IMG/VR virus record: IMGVR_UViG_3300008117_000025
Span: 118,847 to 182,846 of that record
Strand: one strand, 5' to 3'
DNA from: a virus
DNA: 64,000 nt
Position numbers and translations under genes: made by a program. The notes under the pieces were generated by a model. That model made no database searches. It was not told the DNA's origin and was given only the letters and a program-made list of their open reading frames with translations. Below are positions 6,148 to 57,289 of the stretch, one piece after another. Positions within the stretch are counted from its first letter, which is position 1. Each line of letters opens with the position of its first letter.

Positions 6148-6744
6148 TTAAACAGCTGCTATCTTTTGTGCTAGTGCTATTACCTCAGATGTTTTAAAAG
6201 CGGATAAACCACCTTCTAAGCCTTTAACTATGGCAGTATGTGCATCTACTGCTCCCATTCCACTTGATATAGCAGCAGCTGCTAATATAGCAGCATATAC
6301 ACCATGAGCAGCATCATATAATTGTGATGATTTATCTTGTACTTCTTGTCCTTTAAATTTTTTAGGAAAAGATTTTTGTAAAATAACACCGATGGCATCT
6401 ACGTATGCTTCTTCTAATTGATGACCCCAATGTTTAAGAGCATTACCTACTGCTGTTCCTTGTTTTTTATCTTTTTGAAAAATAGAAGCAATACCATTTA
6501 CAGCTTTACCAGCTAAATTTATTAATCCAGGAGCACCAGCAATTAGGCCTAAAGCTAAACCAGCGGCTTCATCAATTTCACCATCATTTGGAGATAATTG
6601 AACTGAGTTTGCTCCTGATTTAAGCATATTTAGTGCTAATTTTAGTCCTTGTTCAGCATCTTTATCAGCTACAGGATCAACTTGTTCGGCTTCAGTAATA
6701 ATACCGGCTAATTGTTGCCAACGTTTTGCTTCTTGTATTAACAT
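6148..6744 (-). CDS. Hypothetical head-associated protein; start revised to 6744 (MLIQEAKRWQQLAGI)
   Basis: Carries the RWQQLAGI motif and Ala/Gly-rich hydrophobic helices; lies between protease and scaffold. Confidence 0.7.
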   Translation of the reverse strand: MLIQEAKRWQQLAGIITEAEQVDPVADKDAEQGLKLALNMLKSGANSVQLSPNDGEIDEAAGLALGLIAGAPGLINLAGKAVNGIASIFQKDKKQGTAVGNALKHWGHQLEEAYVDAIGVILQKSFPKKFKGQEVQDKSSQLYDAAHGVYAAILAAAAISSGMGAVDAHTAIVKGLEGGLSAFKTSEVIALAQKIAAV

Positions 6745-7355
6745 AGTGGACATACTCCTGTTGCGTTACAAATAATTTCAGTTATTAAGCTATTTACTTT
6801 GCTATAATCTTTTATAGAACCAAATTTCTTTGACTCAGCTAATTGCATATATGCTTGTGGAGTTGAAGGTACTGATACTAGATCCCAACACAATAGTTCG
6901 AAATCATCTTGTACTTCAACTGTTTCGCCTAATTGCTTAACAGAGCCCATACCACGAGATGAAATACCAAGTGGAATACCAGACATTACTAATGCTTTAG
7001 CGATATTGCCTGAAGGTGTAGGTAATAATTGTAATTTACCCATTAAATCATTTCCTTTCCACCATACCTCAGTAATAACGTGGGAAGTATTTGCAAGGTT
7101 TACAACAGATGCTTCAGGATGATCGAGTTCTCCTAAGGCAGTACGTGTTTTTACTGGTCCATCTGTGTATTTTTTTACTTCTCTTTCAAGAATTTCGCGA
7201 GGATATACACGACCATTGCCATTCTTTTGCTCAGCTTCTTGTAATTTACCAACAAGGGTAACAAGGTTTTTACCTTCACCTAATTGTTTATTTTCAACAA
7301 TGGTTAGGTTTGCTGTTTGGAATGGAGTGTGATCTATTAATAATGATTTATTCAT
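6738..7355 (-). CDS. gp21: Prohead protease (T4 gp21-like)
   Basis: Motifs NGNGRVYPREIL, ALGELDHP, GISSRGMGSV and DFELLCWDLVSVPSTPQA. Confidence 0.95.
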   Translation of the reverse strand: MNKSLLIDHTPFQTANLTIVENKQLGEGKNLVTLVGKLQEAEQKNGNGRVYPREILEREVKKYTDGPVKTRTALGELDHPEASVVNLANTSHVITEVWWKGNDLMGKLQLLPTPSGNIAKALVMSGIPLGISSRGMGSVKQLGETVEVQDDFELLCWDLVSVPSTPQAYMQLAESKKFGSIKDYSKVNSLITEIICNATGVCPLC

Positions 7356-7356
7356 A

Positions 7357-9243
7357 TTAGTATTCGTTTTCAGCGTCTAAATTATCTCTACCATCATAAT
7401 ATTCAGCAATTACTTCACGTACAACTTCTTCTAATGATGATTTAAATTTATCAAATGAAGCACCTAAATCTTTTTTATCACCAACAGAGGGTAATTGTCC
7501 CATAGCCTGTTTAACAGCGTGTCTTAATGATTTTTCATTATATACGGGGTGTGATATAACTGTTTTATAGGTATCTTCTAATTCTTCTTCTTCAATTTCA
7601 ACACCAGGAATAATTTTTTTTAATTCTTCTGCTTCTACATTATTCAAAGTACCACTAAACATAAATTCACCACCAGCCTCATTTAACTTTTTTTTTGAAT
7701 CTTTAACTTTAACCATTTGATTAGCTTTATCAACTAATTCAACTGCTTCTTTTTTCTTTCTAGCCTTTTTCTCTTCAGGTGCTTTAACTTTAGGAGCTGA
7801 AGGTGATTCAACGCCAGCTAATTTTAATGCTGTGTAGTAGAATGGATTTTCTCTTAAATGATCCAAAGCAATTTTCTTTGCTTTATCTAAATCATCTGTA
7901 TGTTCCAATTCAACTTTAATACCCATTCTTACTTCTTGTGGATGGAATTGATTGGGATGATCTGCTACTGCTTCTTTTTTCTTTTTAGCTTCATTAATTT
8001 TTCCTTCTGTAGGAGCAGACATTTCATCACCCATATTTCCTGGGTATAAGTCAACACTTTCACCACGATTTCTAACAAACTTATCTAATATATGATCAAT
8101 AAGTCCTTCAGAATTATCAAAGTAATAACTTTTATCTTTTTTAAATTCAGGAGTACGGAAATAAGCATCAATTTCTTCAAAAGATTCGTATGGTATTTCT
8201 TCTCCACTTTCTTTTTCGTATCTTTGGTTTATATAATCGTGTAATCTTTCAAGATCATAAGATGTTTTATCACTAGGATCATCCCATCCATAATAACCTT
8301 CATCCATATTTTTTAAACTTTCACTTGCATCCATACCATAGGCATCAAACATATCAGGATCTTCATAGTCTTCATCTTCAGGATAAAATTGATCATCAAC
8401 GACTTGAATTGATTTAGGATCAACATATATAAATCCTTCTCTATCTATTGAAGAAATAGTAGCAGTATATCTAGTATCATCTTCATCATATAAATCTACT
8501 GTTCCTCCAGGAGCATCAGGTTCACCACTTTGATTATCAACATACAATGTTTTACCATTATACTCATAAGTAGGTTCATCAGTATATTCTTCACTAAGTC
8601 CACCTTCAAAATCTTGGAATTTAGTATATTTGCCTGCTTCTTCTTCTTCACCTCTAGAGATCATGTCTTCGATATCAGCATCTTCATTACCACTGAACAT
8701 TGCTACAATTTGTTTAGCAGCATCTAATGGATTTTCAAATTTATCTTTTAAATTACGTTCAGTAGTATTATCCATATAATCCTTAATATCCTCAAATACT
8801 TCTGCTGAAATATCAGGATATTCGTTTTCAATTACACCCCATATACGTCCTTTGTAAGAAGCAGCATATTTTTCTTCTGGGTCGTAATACTCAGTTAAAT
8901 CACCTTCATGTCCTTCAACATCAACAGCATCTTGTGGGAACATAGATTCTAATTCATCTGGGTCCATGCCTGTATTTTGGGCTAGGAGTTCTAAAGCTTC
9001 AGAATATGAGTATCCTTTAGCAAGAAGATTTTTAAAATCATTTTCAACACCACCTAATTCAGCGTTGCGGTTAAGATCACCTTCAGTTAAAATAGCCTTG
9101 TTTTTAAGGATTTTAACAGCATCTTTAAATGAAGTTACATTAGTAATGTATTGAGGCATCATCATACGAACATTTCTCATAAAGTTCGATTGTGACATTT
9201 TGCCTTCTTTCAAATCGCGATATTGGTTTGCTATACTTTTCAT
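7357..9243 (-). CDS. Acidic multi-segment hypothetical protein containing a GIKVELEHT...ALDHLRENPFYY module
   Basis: 628-aa ORF. The module resembles DUF5661 from memory (needs an HMM check). Many (L/I)xE sites. Confidence 0.7.
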   Translation of the reverse strand: MKSIANQYRDLKEGKMSQSNFMRNVRMMMPQYITNVTSFKDAVKILKNKAILTEGDLNRNAELGGVENDFKNLLAKGYSYSEALELLAQNTGMDPDELESMFPQDAVDVEGHEGDLTEYYDPEEKYAASYKGRIWGVIENEYPDISAEVFEDIKDYMDNTTERNLKDKFENPLDAAKQIVAMFSGNEDADIEDMISRGEEEEAGKYTKFQDFEGGLSEEYTDEPTYEYNGKTLYVDNQSGEPDAPGGTVDLYDEDDTRYTATISSIDREGFIYVDPKSIQVVDDQFYPEDEDYEDPDMFDAYGMDASESLKNMDEGYYGWDDPSDKTSYDLERLHDYINQRYEKESGEEIPYESFEEIDAYFRTPEFKKDKSYYFDNSEGLIDHILDKFVRNRGESVDLYPGNMGDEMSAPTEGKINEAKKKKEAVADHPNQFHPQEVRMGIKVELEHTDDLDKAKKIALDHLRENPFYYTALKLAGVESPSAPKVKAPEEKKARKKKEAVELVDKANQMVKVKDSKKKLNEAGGEFMFSGTLNNVEAEELKKIIPGVEIEEEELEDTYKTVISHPVYNEKSLRHAVKQAMGQLPSVGDKKDLGASFDKFKSSLEEVVREVIAEYYDGRDNLDAENEY

Positions 9244-9245
9244 AG

Positions 9246-9380
9246 TTATCTTCCTTGGCCACGATAGTTTTTTTCGCTTCTATCGTGTTTGTTAAATGAT
9301 TTTTTTGCTTTACCTAATTTACGTTTACCAAAGGTGATCTTACGGGATTCACCCATTTTGGAACCTTTTGCTTTAGCCAT
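9246..9380 (-). CDS. 44-aa highly basic peptide ending YRGQGR
   Basis: Hand-translated MAKAKGSKMGESRKITFGKRKLGKAKKSFNKHDRSEKNYRGQGR; fills the gap between flanking genes. Confidence 0.75.
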   Translation of the reverse strand: MAKAKGSKMGESRKITFGKRKLGKAKKSFNKHDRSEKNYRGQGR

Positions 9381-9429
9381 TATTGGTACAAGTTTTTAAT
9401 TTTGTTATTTATTTTAAATTTAGATAGAT

Positions 9430-9789
9430 TTACATCTGTTCCTGATTGTAATCTTCTTTATAGTATCTAATATTATCAGCAATATCATCAAGTTCTCCTA
9501 CACGTTTATTGAATAAAAGTCTTTTTAGTTTAGGATATGGAGTATCTTCTATTTCATCATCAAAACTTTCAATGGCCTGTAATAGATTGTTATATTCACT
9601 GGATTTTTTGCCGGTTTCAGTCCATTGCATAACATCATCGTAATGTTTTAATAATATATCTCTATTGACAACAATATATTTGACAAATTCTTCTTTATTA
9701 TCATCAATATCAAAACTCATACCTTCATTTATTTTTAAAATACCAGCTAATTGCTGCATTCTTTTTATTTCGTTGATTTGCTGTTTCAT
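9430..9789 (-). CDS. Hypothetical protein with INEIKRMQQLAGI N-terminal tag
   Basis: ORF track; the motif is shared with other head-region ORFs. Confidence 0.7.
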   Translation of the reverse strand: MKQQINEIKRMQQLAGILKINEGMSFDIDDNKEEFVKYIVVNRDILLKHYDDVMQWTETGKKSSEYNNLLQAIESFDDEIEDTPYPKLKRLLFNKRVGELDDIADNIRYYKEDYNQEQM

Positions 9790-10319
9790 TATTGATGCAA
9801 ATTTTTAATTTTGTTATTTAAATGATTTACCATTTCGGAAATTTTACCAATGTTATTTTGGGTAGCTTTCCAATATTTTATTCCTTCTTCACCTTCACTT
9901 AATTCTTGCTTCATGCGAGAAGTATATTCTACAATACGATCAATTTCAGCTAATTTACGTTTTACTTCACGAATTGCTTTATGTAATTGTTCAGATTTGG
10001 TTCTGAATTTTACATCTTTTTTAAACTTAGAATATGTTACTTCGTTAAGTAATTCTTGCTCGATAATTTTTAATAGTGATTCGTTCATAGCAGATTTTTT
10101 ACCTTTCCATAATTCTTTATAATCAAGCACTTTAGAATTTTTAGGCATTCCTGGTGCTAATTTCCATCCTGATCTTTGTGCTTGTTTAGTAGCGGCGTTT
10201 GGGCCTTGCCCTTTTTTAGCAAATGCTAGTGGAGTAGAATATGCTTCTCCACTACCAGTAGTAGACATTTCTTCTAGCTGTTGACGTATTAGGGATTTTA
10301 TGTATTCTTTTAAATTCAT
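9789..10319 (-). CDS. Hypothetical head-region protein
   Basis: ORF track, stop/start coupled; N-terminal MNLKEYIKSLIRQQLEE. Confidence 0.7.
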   Translation of the reverse strand: MNLKEYIKSLIRQQLEEMSTTGSGEAYSTPLAFAKKGQGPNAATKQAQRSGWKLAPGMPKNSKVLDYKELWKGKKSAMNESLLKIIEQELLNEVTYSKFKKDVKFRTKSEQLHKAIREVKRKLAEIDRIVEYTSRMKQELSEGEEGIKYWKATQNNIGKISEMVNHLNNKIKNLHQ

Positions 10320-10654
10320 TATTTTAAAGTAACTTCAAATATTATTCCACTTATAGGGCTTGTTATTTTTTTAGTTTTAGGATCCTCTACGTGACCAAAC
10401 TGATGATTAAAAGCAGAAACAGAACATTCAATCACAAATGTTCCTGCTACTTTACTAAAATCACTAAGTCTAGATATTTTATGTACATTTATACTATAAT
10501 CATTGTTAATTTTAATTGGACCCATTTCTCCAACAAAATTATTCATTATATCACATATTTTACTCTTAGGAAGATTTATTTTATATTTTTTCCCAGACTC
10601 AAAATTAATTGGAGCTCCTTCTTTTATCCCAGCTAATTCTTGTAGTCTATTCAT
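10319..10654 (-). CDS. Hypothetical protein with MNRLQELAGIKE tag
   Basis: ORF track, coupled to its neighbours. Confidence 0.65.
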   Translation of the reverse strand: MNRLQELAGIKEGAPINFESGKKYKINLPKSKICDIMNNFVGEMGPIKINNDYSINVHKISRLSDFSKVAGTFVIECSVSAFNHQFGHVEDPKTKKITSPISGIIFEVTLK

Positions 10655-10655
10655 T

Positions 10656-11510: not shown

Positions 11511-11543
11511 AATGAATAGTATGCACTATCTATAAATATTTAA

Positions 11544-13430
11544 TTATTGTACGCCCTTGATATTTTTTTCATCTAATAGTGATGGTTCTTGTTCAGGTTT
11601 GAACACTAATTCTTTGCGAACTATATTCATACCTTCAAACAAATGCTTATTTCTTTTCAATTCATTTAATGCTAATGGTGAACCACCTTTTGGTGTTCCT
11701 TCACCAGTTTCATTAGGAGTTGATAAAGTATTATTAGCTATCTTACCTGTTCTGTCCTTACCTAATGGATCTTGTTGTGTTCCAACTATAGATGCTCTTT
11801 CTTTAGGACGACCAGGTTTTTTCTCATCATATCCAGCAGGTACAGGACCATTATCGTTCATTCCTGATCTGCCTTTACCATATAATGATGCTAAATCGTG
11901 TGGTGTACCAAATGATCTACCTGTTTTAGCTGGGTCGTTGCCTTCATTTTCAATTTGAGCTAAACGGAATACGCGTTTTTTATCTTCAATCATTAAATCA
12001 CGGTATTCATCAAATTCATCTTCACTAAATTGGAATATTTTATCATAAATCCAATCTGAAGGGAGTAAATTGGTATCCTGGATTGATTTAGCTAGGTCAA
12101 CTTTTTCCTTCCATAATGCTATTTTTTCTTGTTCGTAGATTATAGATGGAACTGTTAAAGATAATTCAAAGTTTGACAATGCTTCACCATCATATCCTTG
12201 AACATATAAATGCACTAATGCAATTTTATACAATTCAGATAATGCAATACGTTGAATACGTTCTACTGTGCGAGCGAAGCGAATATCTTCAGCAGCTAAT
12301 GTAGCTTTACCTTCAAGATCTTTTTCAAATCCAAAGAATGCTTTAGGCACTTTTAACGCAGCTAACATTTCATCACGTAAGAAATTTACGTCTTCAATTG
12401 CATTATATTCAAGACCTTTAATGGTATCAATCTTAGTTGCTGTATCATTACCACGAGTTGGAAGATAAAAGTCTTCCATCATGTTTTGTACATTATATTT
12501 TAAATTATATTCACCAGTTTGTTGATCAACATATGGAGTTTTCTTCATCTTCTGCATTATTTTCTGCATGAATCCGTCAACTTCATGTGGTGGAATATTA
12601 CCAACATTAACAGTGAATACGCGTTTTTCTGGGGCGCGAGTAATACGATGCAACAACATTGCATCTTTCATTAGCACATATTGCTTATATGTTTTACGAG
12701 CAGGCTCAATGTACGATCTACCATAAGGTAAATAGTTAGCATCAGTTAATAATCTAAAGTGAGCTACTTCGTAGTTTTCAAGTATAATTTTACCCTCTTT
12801 ATCTTTAGGACGATCAATCATACTACCACCCATAGCAATAACCATAGGATCGATTCTAAAACGTACTAAAGATGGATTGTGAGGGTCTAATCCTTCCTCA
12901 CGAATCATATCATAAACAGATAATGGTGTTACATTGTATACACCAAATTGATCTGCTATTTCAAGGTGTAAATAGAAATCACCATATTTACACATGTTTC
13001 TAATCCACAACCATAAGTTAAATTCGATGTTTAAAACATCGTAAAATAAATTATAAAGAATACGCTGGATATTATCGTCAGCGCTTCTAATTTGTAATAT
13101 TTCACCTACTTCGTTTTTTAAAGTAGATTCATCAGAAATAATGTCAAGAGTAGATGCAATGATTGATTCTGTATCCATAGCTTCATAGTCAGTATACAAC
13201 TGAATACGAAGTGTTTGGTAATTCATTGTAGGGTTGTATGGCATATTAGCGCCATAGCGGTGTAGCTTAGTAAATCTATCAATAAGAGCGTTGGTCTTTA
13301 CATTACCATATGCTTGAATTTTATCAACATCTATGGTTTTTAATTGATTGCCACCAACATTTCTTATAATAACGTCTGTGCTGAAGAGACGTCTTAATCT
13401 ATCGAATAAGCCTATTTGATTTTCAGCCAT
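11544..13430 (-). CDS. gp20: Portal protein (T4 gp20-like)
   Basis: Motifs YGRSYIEPARK, MLLHRITRAPEKRVFTVNVGNIP, MEDFYLPTRG, IDTIKG and ALKVPKAF. Confidence 0.95.
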   Translation of the reverse strand: MAENQIGLFDRLRRLFSTDVIIRNVGGNQLKTIDVDKIQAYGNVKTNALIDRFTKLHRYGANMPYNPTMNYQTLRIQLYTDYEAMDTESIIASTLDIISDESTLKNEVGEILQIRSADDNIQRILYNLFYDVLNIEFNLWLWIRNMCKYGDFYLHLEIADQFGVYNVTPLSVYDMIREEGLDPHNPSLVRFRIDPMVIAMGGSMIDRPKDKEGKIILENYEVAHFRLLTDANYLPYGRSYIEPARKTYKQYVLMKDAMLLHRITRAPEKRVFTVNVGNIPPHEVDGFMQKIMQKMKKTPYVDQQTGEYNLKYNVQNMMEDFYLPTRGNDTATKIDTIKGLEYNAIEDVNFLRDEMLAALKVPKAFFGFEKDLEGKATLAAEDIRFARTVERIQRIALSELYKIALVHLYVQGYDGEALSNFELSLTVPSIIYEQEKIALWKEKVDLAKSIQDTNLLPSDWIYDKIFQFSEDEFDEYRDLMIEDKKRVFRLAQIENEGNDPAKTGRSFGTPHDLASLYGKGRSGMNDNGPVPAGYDEKKPGRPKERASIVGTQQDPLGKDRTGKIANNTLSTPNETGEGTPKGGSPLALNELKRNKHLFEGMNIVRKELVFKPEQEPSLLDEKNIKGVQ

Positions 13431-15045: not shown

Positions 15046-15065
15046 ATATATAAATATATAAGGGA

Positions 15066-15088
15066 AGCCCAATCTTATCGATTGGGCT
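15066..15088 (-). terminator. Hairpin / likely terminator upstream of terminase
   Basis: 9-bp stem AGCCCAATC/GATTGGGCT followed by a pyrimidine-rich tract on the minus strand. Confidence 0.6.
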
Positions 15089-15109
15089 CGCGTATGGGCA
15101 TGCAAGAGT

Positions 15110-15787: not shown

Positions 15788-16741
15788 TTATTTTTTAATA
15801 CCAGCGTAATATTGCATTCTACCTTTCATCCATTCATCTAATGTTTCTTCTTCTTCAGGCTCAGCTGCTGGTTTTTCAATTGGTTTACCTGTAATTTTAG
15901 ATTGGCGTCTTTGTAAATATTCAGAGTTAGCTAATAGATCATTCATTTTCTTTTGTAATCTATCTTTCAATCCACGAAGATTTTCAATTTCAGAAGATGG
16001 TTCATCTGTAATATCACTAATATCTCTTCTAGAACGTTTAGTTTTTAAAATATCGCTTTTAACTTTAGCTAAACGACCTTCAAGATCAGTATATTGCATA
16101 AATGCTTCATAATCGTCATCTGACATTGAAGCAGCAGATATATCAGCAGTTTCAATTTCACCTGCTTCAGGCTCTTCATCACCACTACCCATTGCTTTAG
16201 CAAATGATGCTTCGATTTCTTCATCACTCATATCACCTGCTAAACCACCCTCTGGTCCTTCTTCACCTGCTGGTACTTCTTCACCTGCTGGTTCAGTCGT
16301 AGGACGATTAAGGCGTGGAGCTGCTTGGGTACCTGATGGGATAATAACGCCATCAGCTACAAGTGCCATAAAATCAGCATTAATTGGATTTTGTTTATCA
16401 TATCCTAAAGCACCAGCTACATCCATTTTAGACATTGGTTCTTCAGTAGCTTGCATTGCTGATACAATTCTTGCTTTTTTACCTGCAAAATCAGCAGCAG
16501 CTGCATCCGGAGCTAGTTCATAGCGTACGGCTACGTTTGCTAATTCATCAATAGCATCTTCTGTAATTTCTTCTCTACCTGAAGATATATCACCTTTTTT
16601 AAGTTGCAATGCTTTAATTTTAGCATCAATTGCTTTCATTTCAGCATCTTTTGCTGATTTTTCAGCTGGGGAAATGTCGGCTTCATTTATTACTTCTTGT
16701 ATGGCTTTACGTACAAGTTCTTGTAAATCTTTTCTATTCAT
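15788..16741 (-). CDS. Acidic tagged protein with possible winged-helix segment; start revised to 16741 (MNRKDLQE)
   Basis: N-terminal LQELVRKAIQEVINE; central PMSKMDVAGALGYDKQNPINADFMALVADGVI; C-terminal RMQYYAGIKK. Confidence 0.6.
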   Translation of the reverse strand: MNRKDLQELVRKAIQEVINEADISPAEKSAKDAEMKAIDAKIKALQLKKGDISSGREEITEDAIDELANVAVRYELAPDAAAADFAGKKARIVSAMQATEEPMSKMDVAGALGYDKQNPINADFMALVADGVIIPSGTQAAPRLNRPTTEPAGEEVPAGEEGPEGGLAGDMSDEEIEASFAKAMGSGDEEPEAGEIETADISAASMSDDDYEAFMQYTDLEGRLAKVKSDILKTKRSRRDISDITDEPSSEIENLRGLKDRLQKKMNDLLANSEYLQRRQSKITGKPIEKPAAEPEEEETLDEWMKGRMQYYAGIKK

Positions 16742-19811: not shown

Positions 19812-20975
19812 TTATTGTAAAGCAGGAGCATTGTTATAGTCAATGACTAGTGTTTTTCCTCCTCTTTTAGATTCAAATTTAGCTTGTTTATAAGGTATTG
19901 TTCTAAAATCTATACCATATTTTTGATTTTCATGGCGAGCTAACCATATAATTGGTTTATCTTCTTCAGTTAAATCATTTATATTATCTATATTTCTTGT
20001 AGTACTAATATTTAATATTCCATCTTGTAAATTAAAATCACCCTTAGAAAAAGAACGTTGTACTATTTTTGCATCTTCAGATCCAAAAGCAATTTGTTTT
20101 ACAATTTTTTCATCATTTAGAGGTGGATAATTTTTTATTAATACCACTCCATACCTTTTATCATCCCTAGGATCAATCATATCTAAAACGTATGATTGAA
20201 AAGGATTTTCTTTAAGTATTAGATTATCAATTTTTCCTGCTTTGCCTTGTTCAACAAATTTATTAAGCAAATCTGAAAATTGTTGTCTTTCGCTACTCCA
20301 CCAATAAATTCCATCTTTTTTAACTGAGATACTTTGGTTTTGGGATGTGCTGTATAGCATTACATCTCCTTTCATTCCTAATTTTTTACCTTTATAACCT
20401 ATATTTTCAGCCTTTTTTACACCTTCTACTATAATTTCAGGACCTTCTTTAGCTATAAACTTAATAGTAAGAGGATTATTATCATTTTGTTCAATATAGT
20501 TATTAATAACATTTACTAATTCAGTTTCATTTGATACTCCTCTTCCTCCACCTTCTTGTCCTCCTAAATCAGCCGATTTATATATAGCATTTATACTTAA
20601 TGCAGTTTCCTGTCCATTTAGTTTGCCTACTAATTTTATATCGCGAGCAGAAGCAGCATCTCTAAAAGCACCAACTAAATTGGATTTTTCTTCTTTATTT
20701 TCTGCTTTAAAAATTTCATCACCTACAGCAACATAATCAATAATAAATTCATCTTCACCTTTTACTCCTATTCTAAAAGGCTTACTATCGTAAAATTTAT
20801 TTGAAAACTGATCAGGACGTTTTTTAATTGATTTTAACGATAGCATAGCTTCTTCTAATTCATGTTCTTGAATTATTTCCTGTAAGAGAGACAGTTTAAT
20901 AGGATCGTTTAAATCAACAATCCCATCGTGGCAACGAAATGACCACTCATTTAATATTTTGTCTATAACTTCCAT
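19812..20975 (-). CDS. Putative PD-(D/E)xK restriction-endonuclease-fold protein with N-terminal tag; start revised to 20975 (MEVIDKILNEW)
   Basis: Motifs GVSNETEL...KGDVML...SISVKKD. The longer ORF-track start overlaps the preceding gene. Confidence 0.55.
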   Translation of the reverse strand: MEVIDKILNEWSFRCHDGIVDLNDPIKLSLLQEIIQEHELEEAMLSLKSIKKRPDQFSNKFYDSKPFRIGVKGEDEFIIDYVAVGDEIFKAENKEEKSNLVGAFRDAASARDIKLVGKLNGQETALSINAIYKSADLGGQEGGGRGVSNETELVNVINNYIEQNDNNPLTIKFIAKEGPEIIVEGVKKAENIGYKGKKLGMKGDVMLYSTSQNQSISVKKDGIYWWSSERQQFSDLLNKFVEQGKAGKIDNLILKENPFQSYVLDMIDPRDDKRYGVVLIKNYPPLNDEKIVKQIAFGSEDAKIVQRSFSKGDFNLQDGILNISTTRNIDNINDLTEEDKPIIWLARHENQKYGIDFRTIPYKQAKFESKRGGKTLVIDYNNAPALQ

Positions 20976-20976: not shown

Positions 20977-21507
20977 TTATGCTTCTGCTGGTGGTGGAGT
21001 TTCTTCGGCTGGCGCTTCAGGAGCTGGTTCTTCAGCTGGAGGTGTAGTTTCTGGAGCGCCTGCGGCTGCTGTAAATGCTTCAGCACCAGCATCAGCTTTA
21101 GGTGCTTCACCGCCACCTTCTTCTTTATCACCAACAGCATAATTTAATTCTAATAAATCAGCTATTCCTTGTTGTGCTCTTTCTAATTCACCTAATTGTT
21201 GCATATTATATCTCTTACCAGCTACTTTTGCTGTGTAATTTTTCTTGCCGTCATACACAATTGTGAATTCTTGTTCGTTAATTAATTTGAGGTTGAATGT
21301 AGTTGGTTTTGGAGCAACTAAATTAACTTCAGTAATAAAACGACCAAATGATGGAGACATTAAGTCTTCTACAATCTTTTTTAAACCAGGAAAACGATAT
21401 ATTAAATACATAGATTTAGCAGCACGTTGCTCTCTTGCTTCTTGTTCTGCTAGAGCTTTACGCACTGCCACTTTAATATATTTCTCTAATAATATTTTTT
21501 TACTCAC
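20977..21507 (-). CDS. Hypothetical tagged protein with Pro/Glu-rich tail
   Basis: N-terminal [18 protein letters not shown]. Confidence 0.7.
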
Positions 21508-21871
21508 TATCTGAATTTTGGCTATATTGGATTTCTTCCTCAGTTAGATATTCAGCTATACTATGCATATAATCTGAAGCTAAGGTAATATATGCTGATA
21601 CCCATCCAGGCAATTGTTGGTTGGGTTCAATTAATTGATATATTTTAGCAGCATTATTAACCATATCTCTTAATTCACTTTTAGCCATTGTAGCTTCGTG
21701 ATCTTGAGTTGGAGGCCAACTTAAGTGGCCTTCTCTCATCTTTTTAGCTATTGCTTGACGGCGCTTTAAAAGATATTTATCTGTCTTATCCTGTTTTCCA
21801 TCATTGTTGATGTCGGCATCTTCTTTGCCCACAGGATCAAGATTTTCTAATAAATCAATGAGTTTAATCAT
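21500..21871 (-). CDS. Tagged protein with EF-hand/dockerin-like loop
   Basis: MIKLIDLLE start; [14 protein letters not shown] loop. Confidence 0.65.
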
Positions 21872-22398: not shown

Positions 22399-23415
22399 TT
22401 ATAAAGTTTCATCTAGATCGGCTAATCCCGTGTCGTCTTTTCTTAAGTCACGTTCAATGTCACGCATTGTATCCATTGCCCATTTACGTTGTAATGGTTT
22501 TAATTCGCCATTGATTGCGTTTTCAATGAATGGAAAAAATTCATCGTCAATCAATTTATATACTTCAGCAAAAAACAATTCACGAACGCGTGCATCATCT
22601 ATATTCGATTCATTATATAAATCAGATATAGCATCATAAATAAATTTACCATACTGTAAATCACGAGGCTCATTTGAGAGCTTGTCAACAGCCCCAACAA
22701 TGGCTTGATTTTTTTCTTTATCGGCTCCAAAGCCTTCAGTTCCAACGATTTCATATAAACCTTTTACTATTTCATGTACTAACATTGGAAAGCAAATAGC
22801 ACGAGCCTTGATTACAAATTGCTCGTTTTCTTCATCATATTCCATTTCACTTTCACCACCTTGCATTTTTTGACCTTGAGCAAGCATTGCTAACATCATT
22901 GCAATTGCATTCTCATCATCATATATACCAAATGCTAATTTTAATATTTCACTATATTTTTCAACCAATTCTGGACTGATTTGGTCAAGGTACTCTCTAA
23001 AGAGCATAAAGCCAAAAGCACCTCTAATAGAGGCACCTTGTGTAATACCGTTAATAATACGGCGTTTTGCTTTTTCAGCTTCAAGAGGCATATTATCTAA
23101 ACTTTCTTCACCACCTCCCATTCCCATGTTTAGATCTCCCATATCAACTATCTTAGCATCAATTTTGATGTTTGCATAATCAATAATTGGGTAAGCATCA
23201 GTTACCATTTGGGCAGCTACCATTTCAAGTTCATCGCGATATCCTTCTTCTGCTTGAATAATTTCACCTAATAATGCTTGTGAACGCACCATTGTTTGCA
23301 TTAGATTTTTATCACCAAGCATTTGGCGTAATGATTCACCTGATTTACCTTTTAGGGCAGTCATTGTTTTAGGTGAAAATATCTTTTCGTAATCGACTTC
23401 TAATAAGCGGCTCAT
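22399..23415 (-). CDS. Helical hypothetical protein
   Basis: 338-aa ORF containing FPMLVHEIVKG. Confidence 0.7.
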   Translation of the reverse strand: MSRLLEVDYEKIFSPKTMTALKGKSGESLRQMLGDKNLMQTMVRSQALLGEIIQAEEGYRDELEMVAAQMVTDAYPIIDYANIKIDAKIVDMGDLNMGMGGGEESLDNMPLEAEKAKRRIINGITQGASIRGAFGFMLFREYLDQISPELVEKYSEILKLAFGIYDDENAIAMMLAMLAQGQKMQGGESEMEYDEENEQFVIKARAICFPMLVHEIVKGLYEIVGTEGFGADKEKNQAIVGAVDKLSNEPRDLQYGKFIYDAISDLYNESNIDDARVRELFFAEVYKLIDDEFFPFIENAINGELKPLQRKWAMDTMRDIERDLRKDDTGLADLDETL

Positions 23416-23660
23416 TATTTTTTAGATTTAAAGCGTGCTACAATTTTTTTAAGCATTTCTTCTTCGTTCATTGCTTTAGGAGCAGGTTTAACTTCAGGAT
23501 TACCTAATGGACGACGTGGTTTTGGTTTACCTGTATCTGGTTTACCTGGTGCTACAGCTGGTCCAGGAGATGGTTTTGGTTTACTAGGTGCCGGAGCATT
23601 TTCGTTTAATACTCTATCAACGATCTCACGGATGATTTCTTTAAGTTTATTTTTGTTCAT
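23415..23660 (-). CDS. Small tagged Pro-rich protein
   Basis: MNKNKLKEIIREIVDRVLNE followed by a P/K-rich linker. Confidence 0.7.
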   Translation of the reverse strand: MNKNKLKEIIREIVDRVLNENAPAPSKPKPSPGPAVAPGKPDTGKPKPRRPLGNPEVKPAPKAMNEEEMLKKIVARFKSKK

Positions 23661-26693: not shown

Positions 26694-27164
26694 TTATATA
26701 TTAAAAAAATATAATAATTGATTTTTCCCATTAATTTTGACCATCTCTAAATTATCTGTTGTTCCTGTATATCCTGCATTCATCATTGTATTGATGTTGT
26801 TCATGTTTCCTTTATATGCATCCTGTACACCTCTTATAAAATAGGATTCAACAAAATTATCTTGAAAATCTTCATGTTTAGGATGCCAATCTATAGCATC
26901 TTTATATAATTCATGAAGTATTTTAGGATTATTATCTAAAAAAACTATATATTCTACATCATTAGTTAATACCTTGTATGGTTTATTATCCCAATTCCAC
27001 TCAGAAATCCATTCATCTTCATTTTCATCTTCATCATACCCTATTAGATGTCCTAAATCTTGAACAATTAATTGTTTTAATATAGAAGATACCTCTGAAT
27101 TTTGTTGAAGTTGTCCTGTGGGGGATATTTCAAGTTCTTTTAATATGTCTAATAATTTAATCAT
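26694..27164 (-). CDS. Tagged hypothetical protein; start revised to 27164 (MIKLLDILKE)
   Basis: The tag begins 1 nt after the upstream stop. Confidence 0.7.
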   Translation of the reverse strand: MIKLLDILKELEISPTGQLQQNSEVSSILKQLIVQDLGHLIGYDEDENEDEWISEWNWDNKPYKVLTNDVEYIVFLDNNPKILHELYKDAIDWHPKHEDFQDNFVESYFIRGVQDAYKGNMNNINTMMNAGYTGTTDNLEMVKINGKNQLLYFFNI

Positions 27165-31800: not shown

Positions 31801-32890
31801 CGTCTACTAATTGGTCTTTGTATAATTCCCAAGCAGCAACACTCTCATCAGGTGAAATACCATCATGTATTTTAGGTGAAACTAATACTACTACTTGATC
31901 TGCTTTATTAAGTAATTGTTTTACTACACTAAAGTGACCTTTATGTGGTGGTTTGAATTTGCCTGGAAATAGTGCTATTGTTGTTTCACTTTGTTCAAGT
32001 AGCAATGATGCAATGTATCTACCTAGGTTAGTTTCACTTAGCATTGAATTTACTTTATCTAATGATTTTTGTTTATTATCGCCTTTTGGCGTATTTACTT
32101 CACCACTTTTAATAGATACCATCGAGTTAAAAACGCCTTTAATGCGGTTTTTAGAGCGTGGATTTTGTACCTTAGATGATATATTATTTAACAGTTCCTC
32201 GAAGCTACCGTCTATTTTGTAGTTGGTAAATAGCTTTTTGATATTAGACCAATTGCTAGTTTTCCATACTTCGGTACGATCAGTTTCTTTAAAATTATCT
32301 AACGTTACGATACGTAATGTTAAACCGGCGCTTGATAAGTTAAATTCATATTCTTGATTTGCTTCTAGTACAGGTACATTTTTTATACCCATACGAGCAA
32401 ATATTGATTTAGGATCTTCCTCTAGACATATTACCTTAGCTAATCCTAATAATAGTCCTTGTATTTCAGCAGGATAATCTAAAAATTCTTTCTTGAATTC
32501 AGCTTCATCATCACTAACAGAAACAATATTATCTATTTGAACGTATTGATCTGGTTGGTCTTCTATAGGATATAGTATGGTAATAATTTCACCTGTGTTG
32601 AGGTATTTTTTACCTTTATATTTTTCACTTTTAAAGGGAATAATAACGTCGTCTGGTAGTGCTGATAGGAATTTAGCTAGCTCTACTTTAATATTTTTCT
32701 TGTCTGTTGCTTCTAAATTAACAATTAAGTCAATATCACCAAAATCTTCTTTAGCGCTTGTATTATATGAACCTGAAATTTTAGCACTTTTAAAAGCAGG
32801 AAATTTCTTTAATATCCTGTTGATATAATTATCTGTTGTTTTAGCAACAGAAGCTCTAGTAATCCTATTTCCACCGGCTGATCCTGACAT
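28814..32890 (-). CDS. Polyvalent protein: Pol-beta-like NTase + HxGH nucleotidyltransferase + two repeats + HExxH metallopeptidase
   Basis: SGSYN...FGDIDL...VQID; ALFPGKFKPPHKGH; two YGNGYSFCISARG repeats; TLAHELVH...ENEANAKAG. Confidence 0.8.
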   Translation of the reverse strand: MSGSAGGNRITRASVAKTTDNYINRILKKFPAFKSAKISGSYNTSAKEDFGDIDLIVNLEATDKKNIKVELAKFLSALPDDVIIPFKSEKYKGKKYLNTGEIITILYPIEDQPDQYVQIDNIVSVSDDEAEFKKEFLDYPAEIQGLLLGLAKVICLEEDPKSIFARMGIKNVPVLEANQEYEFNLSSAGLTLRIVTLDNFKETDRTEVWKTSNWSNIKKLFTNYKIDGSFEELLNNISSKVQNPRSKNRIKGVFNSMVSIKSGEVNTPKGDNKQKSLDKVNSMLSETNLGRYIASLLLEQSETTIALFPGKFKPPHKGHFSVVKQLLNKADQVVVLVSPKIHDGISPDESVAAWELYKDQLVDGDKVEIRVSAVTPVKDVYDFVENNPEVTVYAAYGKGEEDRYKNLSKYSNAKIFDAGNFGGLNATDLRKAIRDGNEEEIKKFLPDGVEVADFLLAMGKESKEEPKPEPAPAEQPPAEPLKEYSEKVISQLTDKFTQENPELSTEQVKEYIKRFDQIKNNLSANKRDIFQYSWSDLEDTIKDNLQSKRIKAGKLNDGDVTNAELLYNQNNIRVYEGGSKKSCIKYGNGYSFCISARGSRNLYARYRVGSEEGSYEESGPASIYFVFDDSRSSDKGKNGFIDPTHLLVILVEEGEAFSVTEANNAGEELFSTFEEMAEVYPQLNGLKNILQYKPIGDSDIDVKIYNLERQKEKKLDNLLDEYPALSIISGKDTKSGKSTATKLLKGELQLYFYRLLAYDKKNGQLNPYMTIQKNYAVAKNEKEFEKNISGWIDNVKKLNLTPKLEYKLVPLDDEHEEILSTYIEISNKYDREILKLKLINETSINEYSNKLVNDLTAKFQQEKPNLGVNIIQSYINRFSQIKDSPRVTEKDITKYNWKDLETTVDANQPKRIKAGKINDGEPSKDANLVYNQNGLRIYVGKTKNACIKYGNGYSFCISARGDDNLYYDYRYEESGTPYFVFDDTKSSEQDKNGNFVDITHLLVIFVHPDPNGEFVDANYNMYSDNGIDHYTVTTADNPGEDFYSFFKNIEDKYPRLKGLKNIFKDVEVDPKEKAEYELDKKYNSLLGNLNDSYDYKNGKNYQEGFRDKQYVFRYIKTADNKIDDILSGKIKSYKIIATLKYVKKEDRYATSYISQNRIVKAGSDIKDEYKKFADNILMSLAPPGITLKDVLNDWNINSEELGLLKEYMEEVKQLVDEYRKELAKIKLMNEGLKSKLQRLDESETGTIGEFIKYACKNLAIQNPPRSLTLSYDTNQVKDRRSFGYFDPNDNKIWVYVKNRNMADILRTLAHELVHHKQNLDGRISYESGKTGSEIENEANAKAGILLRDFGKQNNEIYQ

Positions 32891-33861
32891 TATGCTTTTT
32901 CTTTTTGGTAAGGAATTAATTTAGAATTATCAGGTAAGAATTTACCTTTTAATCCTAGTCTATCTTGGTTATCAATCCAATATTTTTGTAAATTATCAGG
33001 TATATCTGCTCTAGTTGAGTCAAGTATTTTAAGATATCTATCCATAATAGAATTATATTCTTCTTTGGATATATTTTTTCTTATATAATCTTCTAATTTG
33101 AAATAATCATCAAGAATATCTTGAGTTAAATTAAAACCGTATAATTTATTTAATAGAGCGATTGCTTCTTTAGGATTAGATGCTTCCTGCTTACCTGTTT
33201 CCTTATCTAAAACACCAGTAGTATGACCAAATGTTTTACCTTTATTAGCAAATAAAGCTAACATTAATTGTGTACGATGTAATCCTTTAACATTGCCCTC
33301 ATATGATTGAGAATAATAACTAAAACGTAACCATTCAGGATTACCTACATTAATATCGGTTTGAACTGCTTTACCTACTTTTTCACCGTCAGGTCCGTAT
33401 TGAGGTATAGCACAAAATATAGAGCCGGCACCTGATGCTTTAAGATCAACTTCAACGTCAGGTAAAGCATCGTTAATTTTATCTCCAATCAATACAATCA
33501 TAGCACGTAATTGGAGTTTTTCAGGAGTAGCGGTTCTAGCTTTTTTAGTAAATTGAGCTAAAAGTTCATTATATTTGTTTTCATCTACACCCCAGCCTTT
33601 AAAGTCAGGTTTTCCACCAGGAAATATATTTTGAATATCATATGATAAATCAATATCACCTGACACGGCTTTTTTACCAGCAGATCCTAATTTTTCAAAT
33701 GCTTTAAACGTTGATGCCTTTGCAGGAAATATTTTAGATAATTGATCTACAAATTTTTCAATTGTAGGTTCAATATTGTCTTTTTCAATTGAATCGGTAG
33801 TACCAAATACATTACCACCTTCTAACAATATTTGTTTAGCTATTTTTAATAATTGGATCAT
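32890..33861 (-). CDS. Tagged Pol-beta-superfamily nucleotidyltransferase
   Basis: MIQLLKIAKQILLEG start; LGSAGKK..SGDIDL...VQTD. Confidence 0.75.
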   Translation of the reverse strand: MIQLLKIAKQILLEGGNVFGTTDSIEKDNIEPTIEKFVDQLSKIFPAKASTFKAFEKLGSAGKKAVSGDIDLSYDIQNIFPGGKPDFKGWGVDENKYNELLAQFTKKARTATPEKLQLRAMIVLIGDKINDALPDVEVDLKASGAGSIFCAIPQYGPDGEKVGKAVQTDINVGNPEWLRFSYYSQSYEGNVKGLHRTQLMLALFANKGKTFGHTTGVLDKETGKQEASNPKEAIALLNKLYGFNLTQDILDDYFKLEDYIRKNISKEEYNSIMDRYLKILDSTRADIPDNLQKYWIDNQDRLGLKGKFLPDNSKLIPYQKEKA

Positions 33862-39056: not shown

Positions 39057-39488
39057 CTACAACAAGTCTTTAGTAAAGAATTTACCTAGTATATTATCAT
39101 TGTATGATCTGTCCTTTCCAATCAGAACTTCTTCTTTACACTGGAAATGCATTTCGTAATATGTTAATGCTTTTTTAGTTTTGCATTGTATTAGGATCCA
39201 ACGATCAAAATTTTCCTCGCCATATTCCTTAATATCAGTAAGTAATTGTTTATTAGACCCCCAATATTTTTGCCAATCGCTTTCAGTACGAATTATTTCG
39301 TGAGTTGGTTTGCGACCTGGGCCAGTTTGTTCAGCAAGTTGTTTTTTAGTGAGTTTGTGTTTTTTATTATTCCAAAACACTTTTTTACCAATATAAAATT
39401 TACCTGTTTTTAAATTGGTAATTTTATAAACAAAACCATAATATTTTTCGGGATTAGGTATATCCCAACTTTTCCACTTGTGTATCAT
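39057..39488 (-). CDS. GIY-YIG endonuclease (Seg-like)
   Basis: Motifs GFVYKITNLKTGKFYIGKK, YWGSN and YNDNI. Confidence 0.8.
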   Translation of the reverse strand: MIHKWKSWDIPNPEKYYGFVYKITNLKTGKFYIGKKVFWNNKKHKLTKKQLAEQTGPGRKPTHEIIRTESDWQKYWGSNKQLLTDIKEYGEENFDRWILIQCKTKKALTYYEMHFQCKEEVLIGKDRSYNDNILGKFFTKDLL

Positions 39489-39859
39489 ATTTCAACTATC
39501 CAAATAGATGGATCTATTCCTTTATTTATTAATCCTGACAGTCTGGTATTTCCAGCTAACAGATCATAGTCTTGATCATTAAATTTTACTGCTATAGGTA
39601 TTTCTACTTTATTTTGATAAAATGATTTATTAAATCTATCTTTTTTAGGTTCTTCTAATTTGTTAAAATTTAAATCTATATTACCTAATACATCTTTAAT
39701 TTTAGAATATTTTATAATGTATCCTTGATTAGCTATTTTTTTCCATTCCTCCTTTCCCATTTTTTTAAGTTCTGGATATCTGATAGCTTCTTCCCACTCA
39801 ATGTCGAAATTGGGTTTAGTGTATTTTATTTCTTTTAAAAGATTTAATAGCTTAATCAT
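39485..39859 (-). CDS. Tagged ParB/Srx-like domain protein
   Basis: MIKLLNLLKE start; IPIAV...DLLAGNTRL. Confidence 0.55.
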   Translation of the reverse strand: MIKLLNLLKEIKYTKPNFDIEWEEAIRYPELKKMGKEEWKKIANQGYIIKYSKIKDVLGNIDLNFNKLEEPKKDRFNKSFYQNKVEIPIAVKFNDQDYDLLAGNTRLSGLINKGIDPSIWIVEI

Positions 39860-50925: not shown

Positions 50926-50927
50926 TA

Positions 50928-51332: not shown

Positions 51333-51333
51333 A

Positions 51334-51657: not shown

Positions 51658-51670
51658 AATTATAAATATT

Positions 51671-54449: not shown

Positions 54450-54460
54450 AAATTGTATTA

Positions 54461-55291: not shown

Positions 55292-55309
55292 ATCAATAAA
55301 TATAAACAA

Positions 55310-56083: not shown

Positions 56084-56140
56084 AGTATGATTTCCTAATT
56101 TTTAATCTCAATATAATGAGAAAAAATTACATAACCAAAC

Positions 56141-56410
56141 TTATTTCTTATTATTGAATTGGTTAAGTACTTCTTGAATTTCTCTTAAATTGGTAAAGAA
56201 AGTACCTACTTCATCGTCTGTTTGAAATGCACCTAATGTATCTAATTCTTTTAATTTAGCATTAGAATTAGCAATTATAATACTAATAGCATCAATGTAT
56301 TGTTGTTGTTCATTAACTGCTTTTTCAAGTATATTATTACGTCTAATTAGAAAGAATATACCTATTCCAATTATTTCAATTAAATGAATTATTATTAACC
56401 AAGTCAACAT
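56141..56410 (-). CDS. Single-TM coiled-coil protein
   Basis: Hydrophobic N-terminus; motif GAFQTDDEVG. Confidence 0.65.
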   Translation of the reverse strand: MLTWLIIIHLIEIIGIGIFFLIRRNNILEKAVNEQQQYIDAISIIIANSNAKLKELDTLGAFQTDDEVGTFFTNLREIQEVLNQFNNKK

Positions 56411-56412
56411 GA

Positions 56413-56613
56413 TTATCTATTTGCAAATTGTTGAGCAAATTCATCTGCTTCCAAAGAAATAATTTCACGGGTTTTTTCAACATGCTCTTTTAACAAATCA
56501 ATAGATTCTAAAATTTGATCTTGATCCATGTTGCGATTAACTTGAAATTGTACTTTATTAGCAAGTGCTTCTAGTTGAGTCAATTTGTCTAAAACGTTGT
56601 TTTTATAACGCAT
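56413..56613 (-). CDS. Small helical hypothetical protein
   Basis: ORF track; ATATTTATA motif upstream. Confidence 0.65.
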   Translation of the reverse strand: MRYKNNVLDKLTQLEALANKVQFQVNRNMDQDQILESIDLLKEHVEKTREIISLEADEFAQQFANR

Positions 56614-56705
56614 AATATATGTTTATATATAAATATATGATAATTTCCGTTCCCCACCACCCCTGTTACCTTACTCGTTTCCTTATTTTCAAACCTCTCG
56701 TAGGT

Positions 56706-56737
56706 TAAATATACCAAAGAAATTTTATACTTCCAAA
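56706..56737 (-). promoter_or_regulatory. Bacteroidota-type promoter
   Basis: TTTG-N20-TATATTTA. Confidence 0.6.
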
Positions 56738-56741
56738 GAAG

Positions 56742-56767
56742 AAGGGCATCTTTTTCAAGACGCCCTT
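56742..56767 (-). terminator. Terminator hairpin with GAAA loop
   Basis: AAGGGCGTCTT-GAAA-AAGATGCCCTT followed by CTTCTTT. Confidence 0.7.
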
Positions 56768-56788
56768 ATAATAAAATTAAATATAAAA

Positions 56789-57289
56789 TTACATACCTCC
56801 ACCCATTTTTCTTTCAATGGCATCTGTTCCTCTTTTAAATACTGCTTGTTTTTCTTCTGGTGTTTTAGCTTTTCTTAAATCATTAATTAAAGCAGCAACT
56901 AAAGTACCGCCTACACCAAGTAAAGTAGCTAAACCAGCAACAAGTACATCTGCTATTTCATTTAATTGATTTTCATCTAATTGTTTTTTCTTATCTTCAT
57001 CCTTCATTTTTTTCTTTTCTGCTAATACGGCATGTAATTCTTGGCGAACCATTTCAGCTAATTCTTTTTTGGTAAGTTTTTTCTTTTCCATTTCTGATAG
57101 TGTGTTTATTTTTGGGGATTGTTTTAAAATTGCTTTTGCTATTTCTAATTGTTTTGGATCGTCAATATTGACTTCAAAATAACCTTCAAGTTTATTATTT
57201 TGAATTTGTTCGCTACCTATCGCTTCGCTTTGTTTTTCCATGCGATTGAGAAAAGCAGCTTTATCCTCAAGTTTTATCTTAAATGTCAT
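56789..57289 (-). CDS. Hypothetical protein with internal tag and hydrophobic helix
   Basis: Segments TKKELAEMVRQELHAVLAE and VLVAGLATLLGVGGTLVAALI. Confidence 0.65.
   Translation of the reverse strand: MTFKIKLEDKAAFLNRMEKQSEAIGSEQIQNNKLEGYFEVNIDDPKQLEIAKAILKQSPKINTLSEMEKKKLTKKELAEMVRQELHAVLAEKKKMKDEDKKKQLDENQLNEIADVLVAGLATLLGVGGTLVAALINDLRKAKTPEEKQAVFKRGTDAIERKMGGGM

Follow-up and report, generated by a model that had tools for sequence, protein, structure and literature searches.

In the final 64 kb of the virus record IMGVR_UViG_3300008117_000025 (bases 118,847-182,846 of 182,846 bp; this whole stretch of 64,000 nucleotides is called the window here), about 20 otherwise unrelated proteins carry short tags ending in a hydrophobic-x-Glu site. 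These tags fall into three classes and, to judge from the sequences, are probably prohead-targeting leaders of the kind known from phage T4 as the capsid-targeting sequence (CTS), in an expanded form. The CTS of T4 is a textbook route of loading proteins into a phage head and has already been used to engineer T4 as a delivery vehicle; to our knowledge, it is known for just a handful of T-even proteins. A preliminary description of the window had proposed N-terminal tags common to about 18 unrelated proteins, which we confirm with corrections by scoring position matrices against shuffled proteomes and by BLASTP of the protein bodies. Its interpretation as a whole is partly supported, and every in silico test that we ran backs the core idea of a T4-type tag. 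Three features had escaped it, namely the tags of class C, their identity with the C-terminus of the scaffolding protein, and tags in the interior of polyproteins.

The record has direct terminal repeats and a G+C content of 34%, and 222 of its 239 called genes lie on the minus strand. Its source is an uncultured, Flavobacterium-like phage of the T4 superfamily with a probable host among the Bacteroidota. The nearest cultured relative is Flavobacterium phage vB_FspM_immuto (immuto; host Flavobacterium sp. LMO8), with a capsid protein identity of 61%, whereas Microcystis phage Mel-JY01 and Rhodothermus phage RM378 are related more remotely. For comparison we used the complete sequences of immuto and of four large IMG/VR relatives (G001-G004), the source genome being G000. 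Genes are named below by the coordinate of their start codon in the window, as in the preliminary description; every gene concerned is on the minus strand. A slash marks the predicted cut.

Class A (MIKLLDILKE-like) stands at residue 1 of six clear genes and about five diverged ones. Translation from the coordinates given earlier reproduced the tags, and an unbiased comparison of every protein with every other over the first 25 residues ranked the pairs of class A and class C highest. A position matrix trained solely on the class A tags of the other five genomes and applied with a cut-off of 14 bits gave six matches in the 57,250-residue proteome (27164, 39859, 55291, 21871, 26690, and 27543), all at residue 1, compared with 0.2 in shuffled proteomes. 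Matches of at least 14 bits are absent from the rest of the genome (118 kb) and from the small open reading frames (ORFs) at 58-64 kb, the early region that had been suggested for comparison. The cargo bodies have no mutual BLASTP similarity at E 1e-4; chance and paralogy as causes of the shared tags are ruled out by the shuffles and the all-against-all BLAST. Of eight class A starts proposed earlier, six are thus clear, and 33861 and 27886 are retained through their homologs as diverged members.

21500..21871, minus strand: class A protein, 123 residues, MIKLIDLLE/N, with a Ca-binding-like module; 17.5 bits
26292..26690, minus strand: class A DUF5872 protein (PF19197), 132 residues, GTG start, IKLTDIAKEILNE/DRCKRIAD
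26694..27164, minus strand: class A protein, 156 residues, MIKLLDILKE/L; 22.2 bits
27166..27543, minus strand: class A protein, 125 residues, MIKLLEIIDE/V, with a Cys-containing C-terminal module (phrog_7595)
39485..39859, minus strand: class A protein, 124 residues, MIKLLNLLKE/I; 20.7 bits
54461..55291, minus strand: class A P-loop NTPase/kinase-like protein, 276 residues, MLKLIDILKE/I; 19.7 bits
27653..27886, minus strand: diverged class A, Cys-rich mini-protein, 77 residues, MHSLLELLKLQE/G
32890..33861, minus strand: nucleotidyltransferase of the Pol-beta superfamily, 323 residues, 14-residue class A variant MIQLLKIAKQILLE/GGNVF
1..328, minus strand: plausible diverged class A-like start, MGLLGKILLNE/G; the gene runs off the window start
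19812..20975, minus strand: plausible diverged class A-like start, 387 residues, MEVIDKILNE/W
Genome positions 118447-118827, just upstream of the window: further class A member, MKLIDILKEL

The GTG start of 26690 reads IKLTDIAKE. Among the relatives, the ortholog of 39859 in G002 begins with MIKLFDILKE, an IMG/VR ortholog of 55291 bears the exact MIKLLDILKE tag, and the membership of 27886 is backed by the tagged start of its homolog in G001 as well as by IMG/VR members of the same family whose tag is exact. Two other starts, 328 and 20975, plausibly belong to class A in diverged form, with orthologs that begin with MIKLENILNE in G002 and with MSVVDKIVIE in immuto, respectively; neither the 26292 start, which had been grouped with these two, nor its orthologs carry a tag. 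Homologs of the C-terminal module of 27543 lie behind class B or other N-terminal parts in the relatives. Between the class A copies the codons vary (AAA/AAG, TTA/CTC/CTA/TTG, ATT/ATC), indicating that selection conserves the peptide and not the DNA. As an aside, a GIY-YIG homing-endonuclease-like gene (window 39057-39488) is inserted between the primase gene and the tagged gene 39485-39859.

Class B, aligned as M-N-x-K-x-[LFV]-x-x-[LIV]-[IV]-[RK]-x-[AI]-[IVL]-x-E, is weaker than class A but real, with six N-terminal members. A matrix trained on the other genomes yielded 10 matches of at least 13 bits compared with 1.1 in shuffles, six of them inside the first 12 residues, which make up 5% of all residues. 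The N-terminal six are 51657, 16741, 23660, and 10319, with 21507 and 22364 at 12 bits. Seven class B sites had been listed before; the one that we drop is the internal copy in the 57289 protein, which scores 10.6 bits and thus at noise level.

9789..10319, minus strand: class B protein, 176 residues, MNLKEYIKSLIRQQLEE/MSTTG
15788..16741, minus strand: class B protein, 317 residues, MNRKDLQELVRKAIQE/V; 17.5 bits at residue 6
20977..21507, minus strand: class B protein, 176 residues, GTG start, predicted cut before Q; 12.4 bits
21873..22364, minus strand: class B protein, 163 residues, predicted cut before A
23415..23660, minus strand: class B protein, 81 residues, MNKNKLKEIIREIVDRVLNE/N; 16.3 bits
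51334..51657, minus strand: class B-like N-terminus, 107 residues, MNAKVFKNLIKEAVRE; 18.9 bits
7357..9243, minus strand: conserved head-module protein, 628 residues, upstream of the protease, with a C-terminal class-B-like helix LEEVVREVIAE

The tags recur in the relatives. The homolog of 10319 in immuto begins with MKKSQIVKAVQEVLEE/MSTTG, and its homologs in G002 and G001 are C-terminal modules of longer proteins. The ortholog of 16741 in G002 carries MKKSELQDIIREALLE, the tag of 23660 is retained by the orthologs in G002, G003, and G004, and 51657 has conserved orthologs in G002 and immuto. For 22364, a promoter-like box at 22399 sits downstream of the alternative start 22412 and favors 22364 as the start. 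In the 628-residue protein the class B matrix reaches 18.0 bits at residue 603, and the G002 ortholog has the same C-terminal motif. The N-terminus of the scaffolding protein (MSNKDLFKEAIADAK) was also considered as a source of class B, but it gives no score with the class B matrix, leaving the resemblance an impression.

Class C consists of R-[MW]-Q-x-LAGI followed by I-x-E and is found on three head-module genes, 6753, 9789, and 10654. Its central motif Q-x-LAGI occurs in four copies compared with 0.06 expected; three are near N-termini, and the fourth belongs to the scaffolding protein, at a distance of 10 residues from its C-terminus.

6148..6753, minus strand: class C protein, 201 residues, MSTMLIQEAKRWQQLAGIITE/AE, adjoining the protease
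9430..9789, minus strand: class C protein, 119 residues, MKQQINEIKRMQQLAGILKINE/G
10319..10654, minus strand: class C protein, 111 residues, MNRLQELAGIKE/G
4879..6081, minus strand: scaffolding protein in the gp22 position, acidic (D+E 29%), with 21 [LIV]xE sites

The identity of the scaffolding protein is based on the gene order protease-scaffold-major capsid protein and on termini conserved in six genomes; its true start is probably 5997 (MSNKDLFKEAIADAK). Immediately upstream of the capsid gene, all six genomes encode a protein of 350-410 residues (23-29% of them acidic) that starts with M-[ST]-N-[KR]-D-L and ends with R-[WMF]-Q-x-LAGI-x(1-4)-stop. In the source genome this C-terminus (...ARWQMLAGINKF) holds the class C motif, and class C is a copy of this conserved terminal peptide. 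The distribution of MQKLAGI in IMG/VR shows the same relation on a larger scale: 63 of 82 copies are at most 10 residues from the C-terminus of scaffold-like proteins, 14 are near the N-terminus of diverse small proteins, three are between modules, and two (L151, L183) appear chance-like. What follows the motif differs: I-x-E or a close variant where the copy is N-terminal or between modules, and a stop codon where it is C-terminal. The gp22 protein of T4 ends without a LAGI motif, which makes the relation of class C to the scaffold specific to this wider environmental clade. All three classes are represented in immuto, with class A genes at positions 24569-24994 and 112261-112575 of its record, class B genes at 111184-111654 and 123355-123576, and a class C gene at 111675-112139. 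A separate observation concerns the linker E-M-[RK]-V-N-x-P, which comes after both class A and class C tags in G003 (30952-52353) and G004 (118958-135505) and suggests a conserved context past the predicted cut site.

A putative processing protease and its predicted substrate are encoded next to these genes, within a T4-type head module that includes the large terminase (13465-15105), the portal, the S77 protease, the scaffold-like protein, and a capsid protein of the gp23 family.

11544..13430, minus strand: portal protein of the gp20 type (phrog_213 at 3e-55)
6738..7355, minus strand: prohead maturation protease of the T4 gp21 family (Peptidase_S77), 205 residues (phrog_207 at 5e-54, PF03420 at 9e-34)
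3228..4847, minus strand: major capsid protein of the gp23 family, 539 residues (PF07068 at 1e-78)

The gp21 homolog noticed earlier is thus present, and it keeps the catalytic motifs: GELDHP and GISSRG, in the general form GEL(D/N)HP and G(I/V)SSRG, align with His85 and Ser140 of T4. Its N-terminus MNKSLLID (M-x-K-x-LLI(D/E)) aligns with MNEPQLLIE of the T4 protease, where a possible self-cleaved targeting peptide (LIE-9) has been listed (PMC9026906). The capsid site at residues 59/60 was also read correctly, as the predicted cut VTE59/A60 aligns with LTE65/A66 of T4 gp23 and V-x-E is present in six of six genomes; the capsid protein N-terminus MNVQQLLES resembles class A. In the tags, which measure 9-20 residues, P3 is L, I, or V and rarely A. 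The S77 protease is encoded by the source genome and by each of the five tag-bearing genomes with a completeness of at least 93%, and it was found in 11 of 37 tag-bearing fragments compared with approximately 8.8 expected from their summed completeness. A further gene of the head module (window 9246-9380) encodes a very basic, untagged protein of 44 residues (MAKAKGSKMGESRKITFGKRKLGK...), which is conserved in G001 and may be a DNA-associated internal peptide.

In T4, the CTS of IPI, IPII, IPIII, Alt, and gp24 is removed by the prohead protease gp21 (PMC9026906, PMC3012670), and for IPIII mutational work assigned residues 4 and 7 to targeting and residues 8 and 10 to processing (PMC9026906). 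The propeptides taken from the T4 record (MAKINELLRE/S for gp24, MKTYQEFIAE for IPII and IPIII, MELITELFDE for Alt) have the common pattern M-x-x-h-x-[E/D]-h-h-x-E. Class A fits this pattern, in agreement with the likeness proposed at the outset, and MIKLLDILKE presents L4, D6, I7, L8, and E10, covering the T4 targeting and processing positions. With the T4-derived rule slightly widened (N allowed at position 6, A at position 8), it retrieved five N-termini in the G000 proteome compared with 0.18 expected, and three to eight per relative. Classes B and C are longer and agree with the T4 rule in its terminal [LIV]-x-E part only.

The two systems thus have in common leaders of about 10 residues at the N-terminus of unrelated proteins, a hydrophobic-x-Glu end, an S77 protease, an aligned capsid cut site, and cargo genes that are variable and dispersed. 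They differ in scale, with about 20 tagged genes here compared with about five in T4, and in composition, since three tag classes are present here, of which one copies the scaffold C-terminus, and tags are also located between polyprotein modules. Furthermore, the cargo here includes enzymes, e.g., the nucleotidyltransferase and the P-loop kinase-like protein, the capsid protein has approximately 30% identity to gp23 over the conserved part, and the host is probably a member of the Bacteroidota. Mullaney and Black reportedly described in 1996 that the CTS is carried by internal proteins of T4 and removed by gp21.

On the sequence evidence, the tags behave as swappable modules, for instance where one body is found behind different tags. 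The DUF5872 domain follows a class A tag in G000 and G002 and a class B tag in immuto and G004, while in G003 it stands behind an internal class B tag within a protein that itself starts with class A. A 503-residue protein of G002 that adjoins the protease begins with a class A tag and a 300-residue module, which are followed by the internal class C tag RMQQLAGIITE/V and then by the homolog of 6753. Likewise, an 841-residue polyprotein of immuto has the internal class B tag SKSELKEIMLEAYIEVLQE at the junction that separates the genes 21871 and 21507 in G000, with the module homologous to 21507 directly after it. This behavior fits the earlier idea that gaining a tag could recruit new genes to the particle, and CTS have been suggested before to let T4-like phages recruit varied proteins (PMC9026906).

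The best-defined cargo is the nucleotidyltransferase 33861. Its tag variant MIKLxxIxKQ[IL]x[x]E/GGNVF is typical of the whole family (1,652 relatives), in which both the GS...GDIDL motif and E14 are invariant. The immuto ortholog (50% identity) begins with M-GGNVF, exactly past E14 of the tag. In an AlphaFold2 model the tag forms a detached helix (residues 2-15) whose predicted local distance difference test score (pLDDT) is below 50, ahead of a domain that is modeled from about residue 20 with a pLDDT above 90; the domain has weak Foldseek matches to Pol X polymerases. Some family members are fused behind a cytidylyltransferase-like (NMNAT) domain via ...LIRKLILE/GGNVF. Of the enzyme cargo named in the preliminary description, the nucleotidyltransferase is hence borne out by motif and fold, the kinase-like assignment of 55291 depends on sub-threshold matches only (AAA_18 in Pfam, phrog_2071; phmmer against PDB gave nothing useful), and the restriction-endonuclease-fold and ParB-like labels were not confirmed. 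Most cargo bodies have no Pfam or PHROGs match, and the DNA of the cargo island compared with known phages gave as its sole match a 90-bp stretch, the Ca-binding-like module of 21871. The island also codes for two very large proteins (window 28814-32890 with 1358 residues and 23662-26292 with 876 residues) that share repeated modules; in the larger one, a segment resembles cytidylyltransferases and the C-terminus a metallopeptidase. Both are candidates for multi-module head proteins, although we found a clear tag in neither.

Beyond the source genome, a degenerate DNA pattern search for the exact MIKLLDILKE found 61 loci in IMG/VR, and in nearly all of them its Met is the first ATG a few codons past an in-frame stop. 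The proteins behind it form 29 BLAST-unrelated families. Pfam identified among them a zeta-toxin-like P-loop kinase, a thioesterase (alpha/beta hydrolase), and a gamma-glutamyl cyclotransferase-like (GGACT) enzyme; a 2H phosphoesterase similar to Acb1 matched below threshold. A connection to measured virion contents is provided by the T4-like cyanophage S-SCSM1. Residues 73-131 of its ORF92 are 54% identical to the Ca-binding-like module of 21871, and both ORF92 and the neighboring NMNAT ORF91 were detected by mass spectrometry of CsCl-purified virions (PMC9602691). ORF91 (L113; MK867354.2, 88819-91623) begins with MKSFLQFLKE, in keeping with the CTS pattern of T4. Cyanophage virion proteomes, e.g., those of S-SCSM1 and S-CBWM1, repeatedly contain NMNAT-like proteins, for which the authors did not offer a loading mechanism (PMC9602691). 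The likeness to our phage lies in a metabolic enzyme within T4-type virions whose N-terminus fits the tag rule and in the cytidylyltransferase-like modules that are fused to the nucleotidyltransferase cargo family via an internal tag, while the cyanophages are another lineage with a single such enzyme noted.

Based on these data, we propose that each tag would form a short amphipathic helix through which its protein co-assembles with the scaffold or core on the portal before the gp23-type shell closes. Class C would dock by copying the C-terminal scaffold peptide (R-M/W-Q-x-LAGI), and class A would be the counterpart of the 10-residue T4 propeptides. The S77 protease would then cut at the terminal [L/I/V/A]-x-Glu, as it is predicted to do at VTE59/A60 of the capsid protein and at many scaffold sites. 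This cut would free the body inside the head. As a core component it may be degraded or expelled; alternatively, it may stay in the virion and reach the host with the DNA. Tags between polyprotein modules would serve as combined address and cut sites.

Several points weigh against this proposal. The [LIV]xE site is common and found within the first 26 residues of 85 out of 224 proteins; a cut-site match alone is therefore weak, and in part it follows from how the tags were recognized. The tags of 21871, 33861, and 27886 lack Glu at position 10 and need a neighboring site. The gene 51657 lies among tail and baseplate genes, which makes its membership in the head cargo doubtful. Two tag-bearing fragments, G037 and G027, have no protease, capsid, or terminase match and are uninformative on the protease link; three other fragments are close relatives by primase similarity. 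Moreover, homology to the T4 tags cannot be shown over 10 residues, and the tag system of this phage and of immuto is known from sequence alone.

As to the origin of the tags, we hold it conceivable, if somewhat doubtful, that they are copies of terminal peptides by which the assembly proteins of the phage dock in the prohead. Such scaffold mimicry is suggested by class C, which is identical to the C-terminus of the scaffold, by the similarity of class A to the N-terminus of the protease and of gp24, and by the similarity of class B to the C-terminal helix of the 628-residue protein. If true, any gene or polyprotein module that picks up a peptide of this kind together with an [LIV]-x-E site would yield a product that is packaged and probably injected.

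Among the alternatives to tagged, injected cargo, the one that survives best also accepts targeting to the prohead core. Most of the tagged proteins would then be disposable assembly parts like T4 gp67 and gp68, expelled after use, without an injected arsenal. Between the portal and the capsid gene, where T4 has gp67, gp68, and gp22, there are indeed five tagged genes, namely 6753, 9789, 10319, 10654, and the gene of the 628-residue protein (ending at 7357). Most are small and without a recognizable enzyme domain, and the small tagged head-module proteins could be core components of this type rather than delivered cargo. As an account of most tagged proteins we consider it unlikely, as clear enzymes are tagged that have no evident assembly role (the Pol-beta-type nucleotidyltransferase and, in IMG/VR, zeta-toxin-like kinases, thioesterase, and GGACT) and homologous enzymes (NMNAT) were detected in mature cyanophage virions (PMC9602691).

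Quite improbable, in our judgment, is an address for another destination or partner, such as the inner membrane, the tail or baseplate, or a chaperone like the GroEL and GroES also encoded by this genome, with the terminal Glu incidental. Amphipathic helices often bind membranes or partner proteins, and 51657 has tail genes as neighbors, yet such an address predicts neither the identity of class C with the scaffold C-terminus, nor the fit to the T4 CTS rule, nor the co-occurrence with an S77 protease, nor orthologs that begin exactly past the Glu of the tag. Finally, a nucleic-acid feature behind the conserved starts, acting either in translation initiation or as a handle for the recombinational exchange of cassettes, recalls the polymorphic cassettes with conserved ends at the T-even ip loci (PMC3012670) and the clustering of tagged genes at 19.8-28.2 kb, but is highly improbable given the freely varying synonymous codons and the peptides inside polyproteins and at a protein C-terminus, where translation initiation is irrelevant.

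Returning to prohead-targeting leaders as the favored explanation, we compared them with other known systems. In phiKZ, 201phi2-1, and SPN3US, inner-body or ejection proteins are processed by gp21-like proteases (PMC5694885, PMC7411985). There, too, a diverged gp21 homolog cleaves many proteins inside the head after Glu, the propeptides are inferred to target the prohead, and some N-termini are common to several proteins. In contrast to the tags described here, these propeptides mostly exceed 100 residues, have the cut motif A/S/G-x-E (PMC5694885), and are shared by paralogs rather than by unrelated proteins; propeptides of this type were considered and set aside for the present phage in view of the tag length and the L/I/V at P3. 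Within our literature survey, we found no description of expanded multi-class tag sets, scaffold-terminus tags, or tag-delimited polyproteins.

The cargo-loading peptides of encapsulins and the coat-binding C-terminus of P22 gp8 illustrate that a short terminal peptide suffices to place a protein in an HK97-fold shell. Class C is comparable in reusing the terminal peptide of the scaffold itself. The encapsulin peptides differ in being C-terminal and uncleaved, and binding of class C to the shell is hypothetical.

The preliminary description had further placed most tagged genes behind a late-type motif, which our data do not support. The box ATATTTAT(A) precedes about 45 genes of every functional class at a distance of 15-30 nt (e.g., window 13461, 11539, 48437, 42494, and 55303), with a 15-fold enrichment in intergenic DNA. 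It is directly upstream of five supported tagged genes and of the rejected 57289, and also of many non-structural genes; it therefore is no evidence of late expression. The motif resembles the Bacteroidota -7 promoter box and is best described as a general promoter-like element, whereas the T4 late promoter box TATAAATA is not enriched upstream of genes. A different motif, AATCAAAGGTTATG, is placed right at the start codon in six genes, most of them small (window 62752; genome 1333, 2636, 2986, 5812, and 75285) and may be a ribosome-binding or regulatory element of early genes.

Outside the tagged set, the window contains a gene for a TonB-dependent-receptor-like outer-membrane protein (Plug and OMP beta-barrel, 35123-37277), split into the overlapping ORFs 35535-37277 and 35123-35599 and followed by a predicted lipoprotein gene (33924-35126). 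Together they look like a SusC/SusD-type pair on a phage, which fits a Bacteroidota host.

Taken together, the T4 loading logic appears to extend to distant T4-type phages of aquatic Bacteroidota, where each genome has about 20 such genes and the cargo families, enzymes among them, number in the dozens. It can be put as a simple testable rule of a tag plus a hydrophobic-x-Glu site, and the identity of one tag class with the scaffold's own C-terminal peptide adds a mechanistic clue. If the scaffold-mimicry reading considered above is true, a widespread aquatic clade of T4-type phages would possess an open-ended, exchangeable set of virion-delivered enzymes comprising at least 29 families. If confirmed, the rule would explain the recurring metabolic enzymes (NMNAT) in cyanophage virion proteomes, would make virion-delivered, probably early-acting and anti-defense proteins predictable from sequence alone, and would provide new portable loading tags for phage engineering.

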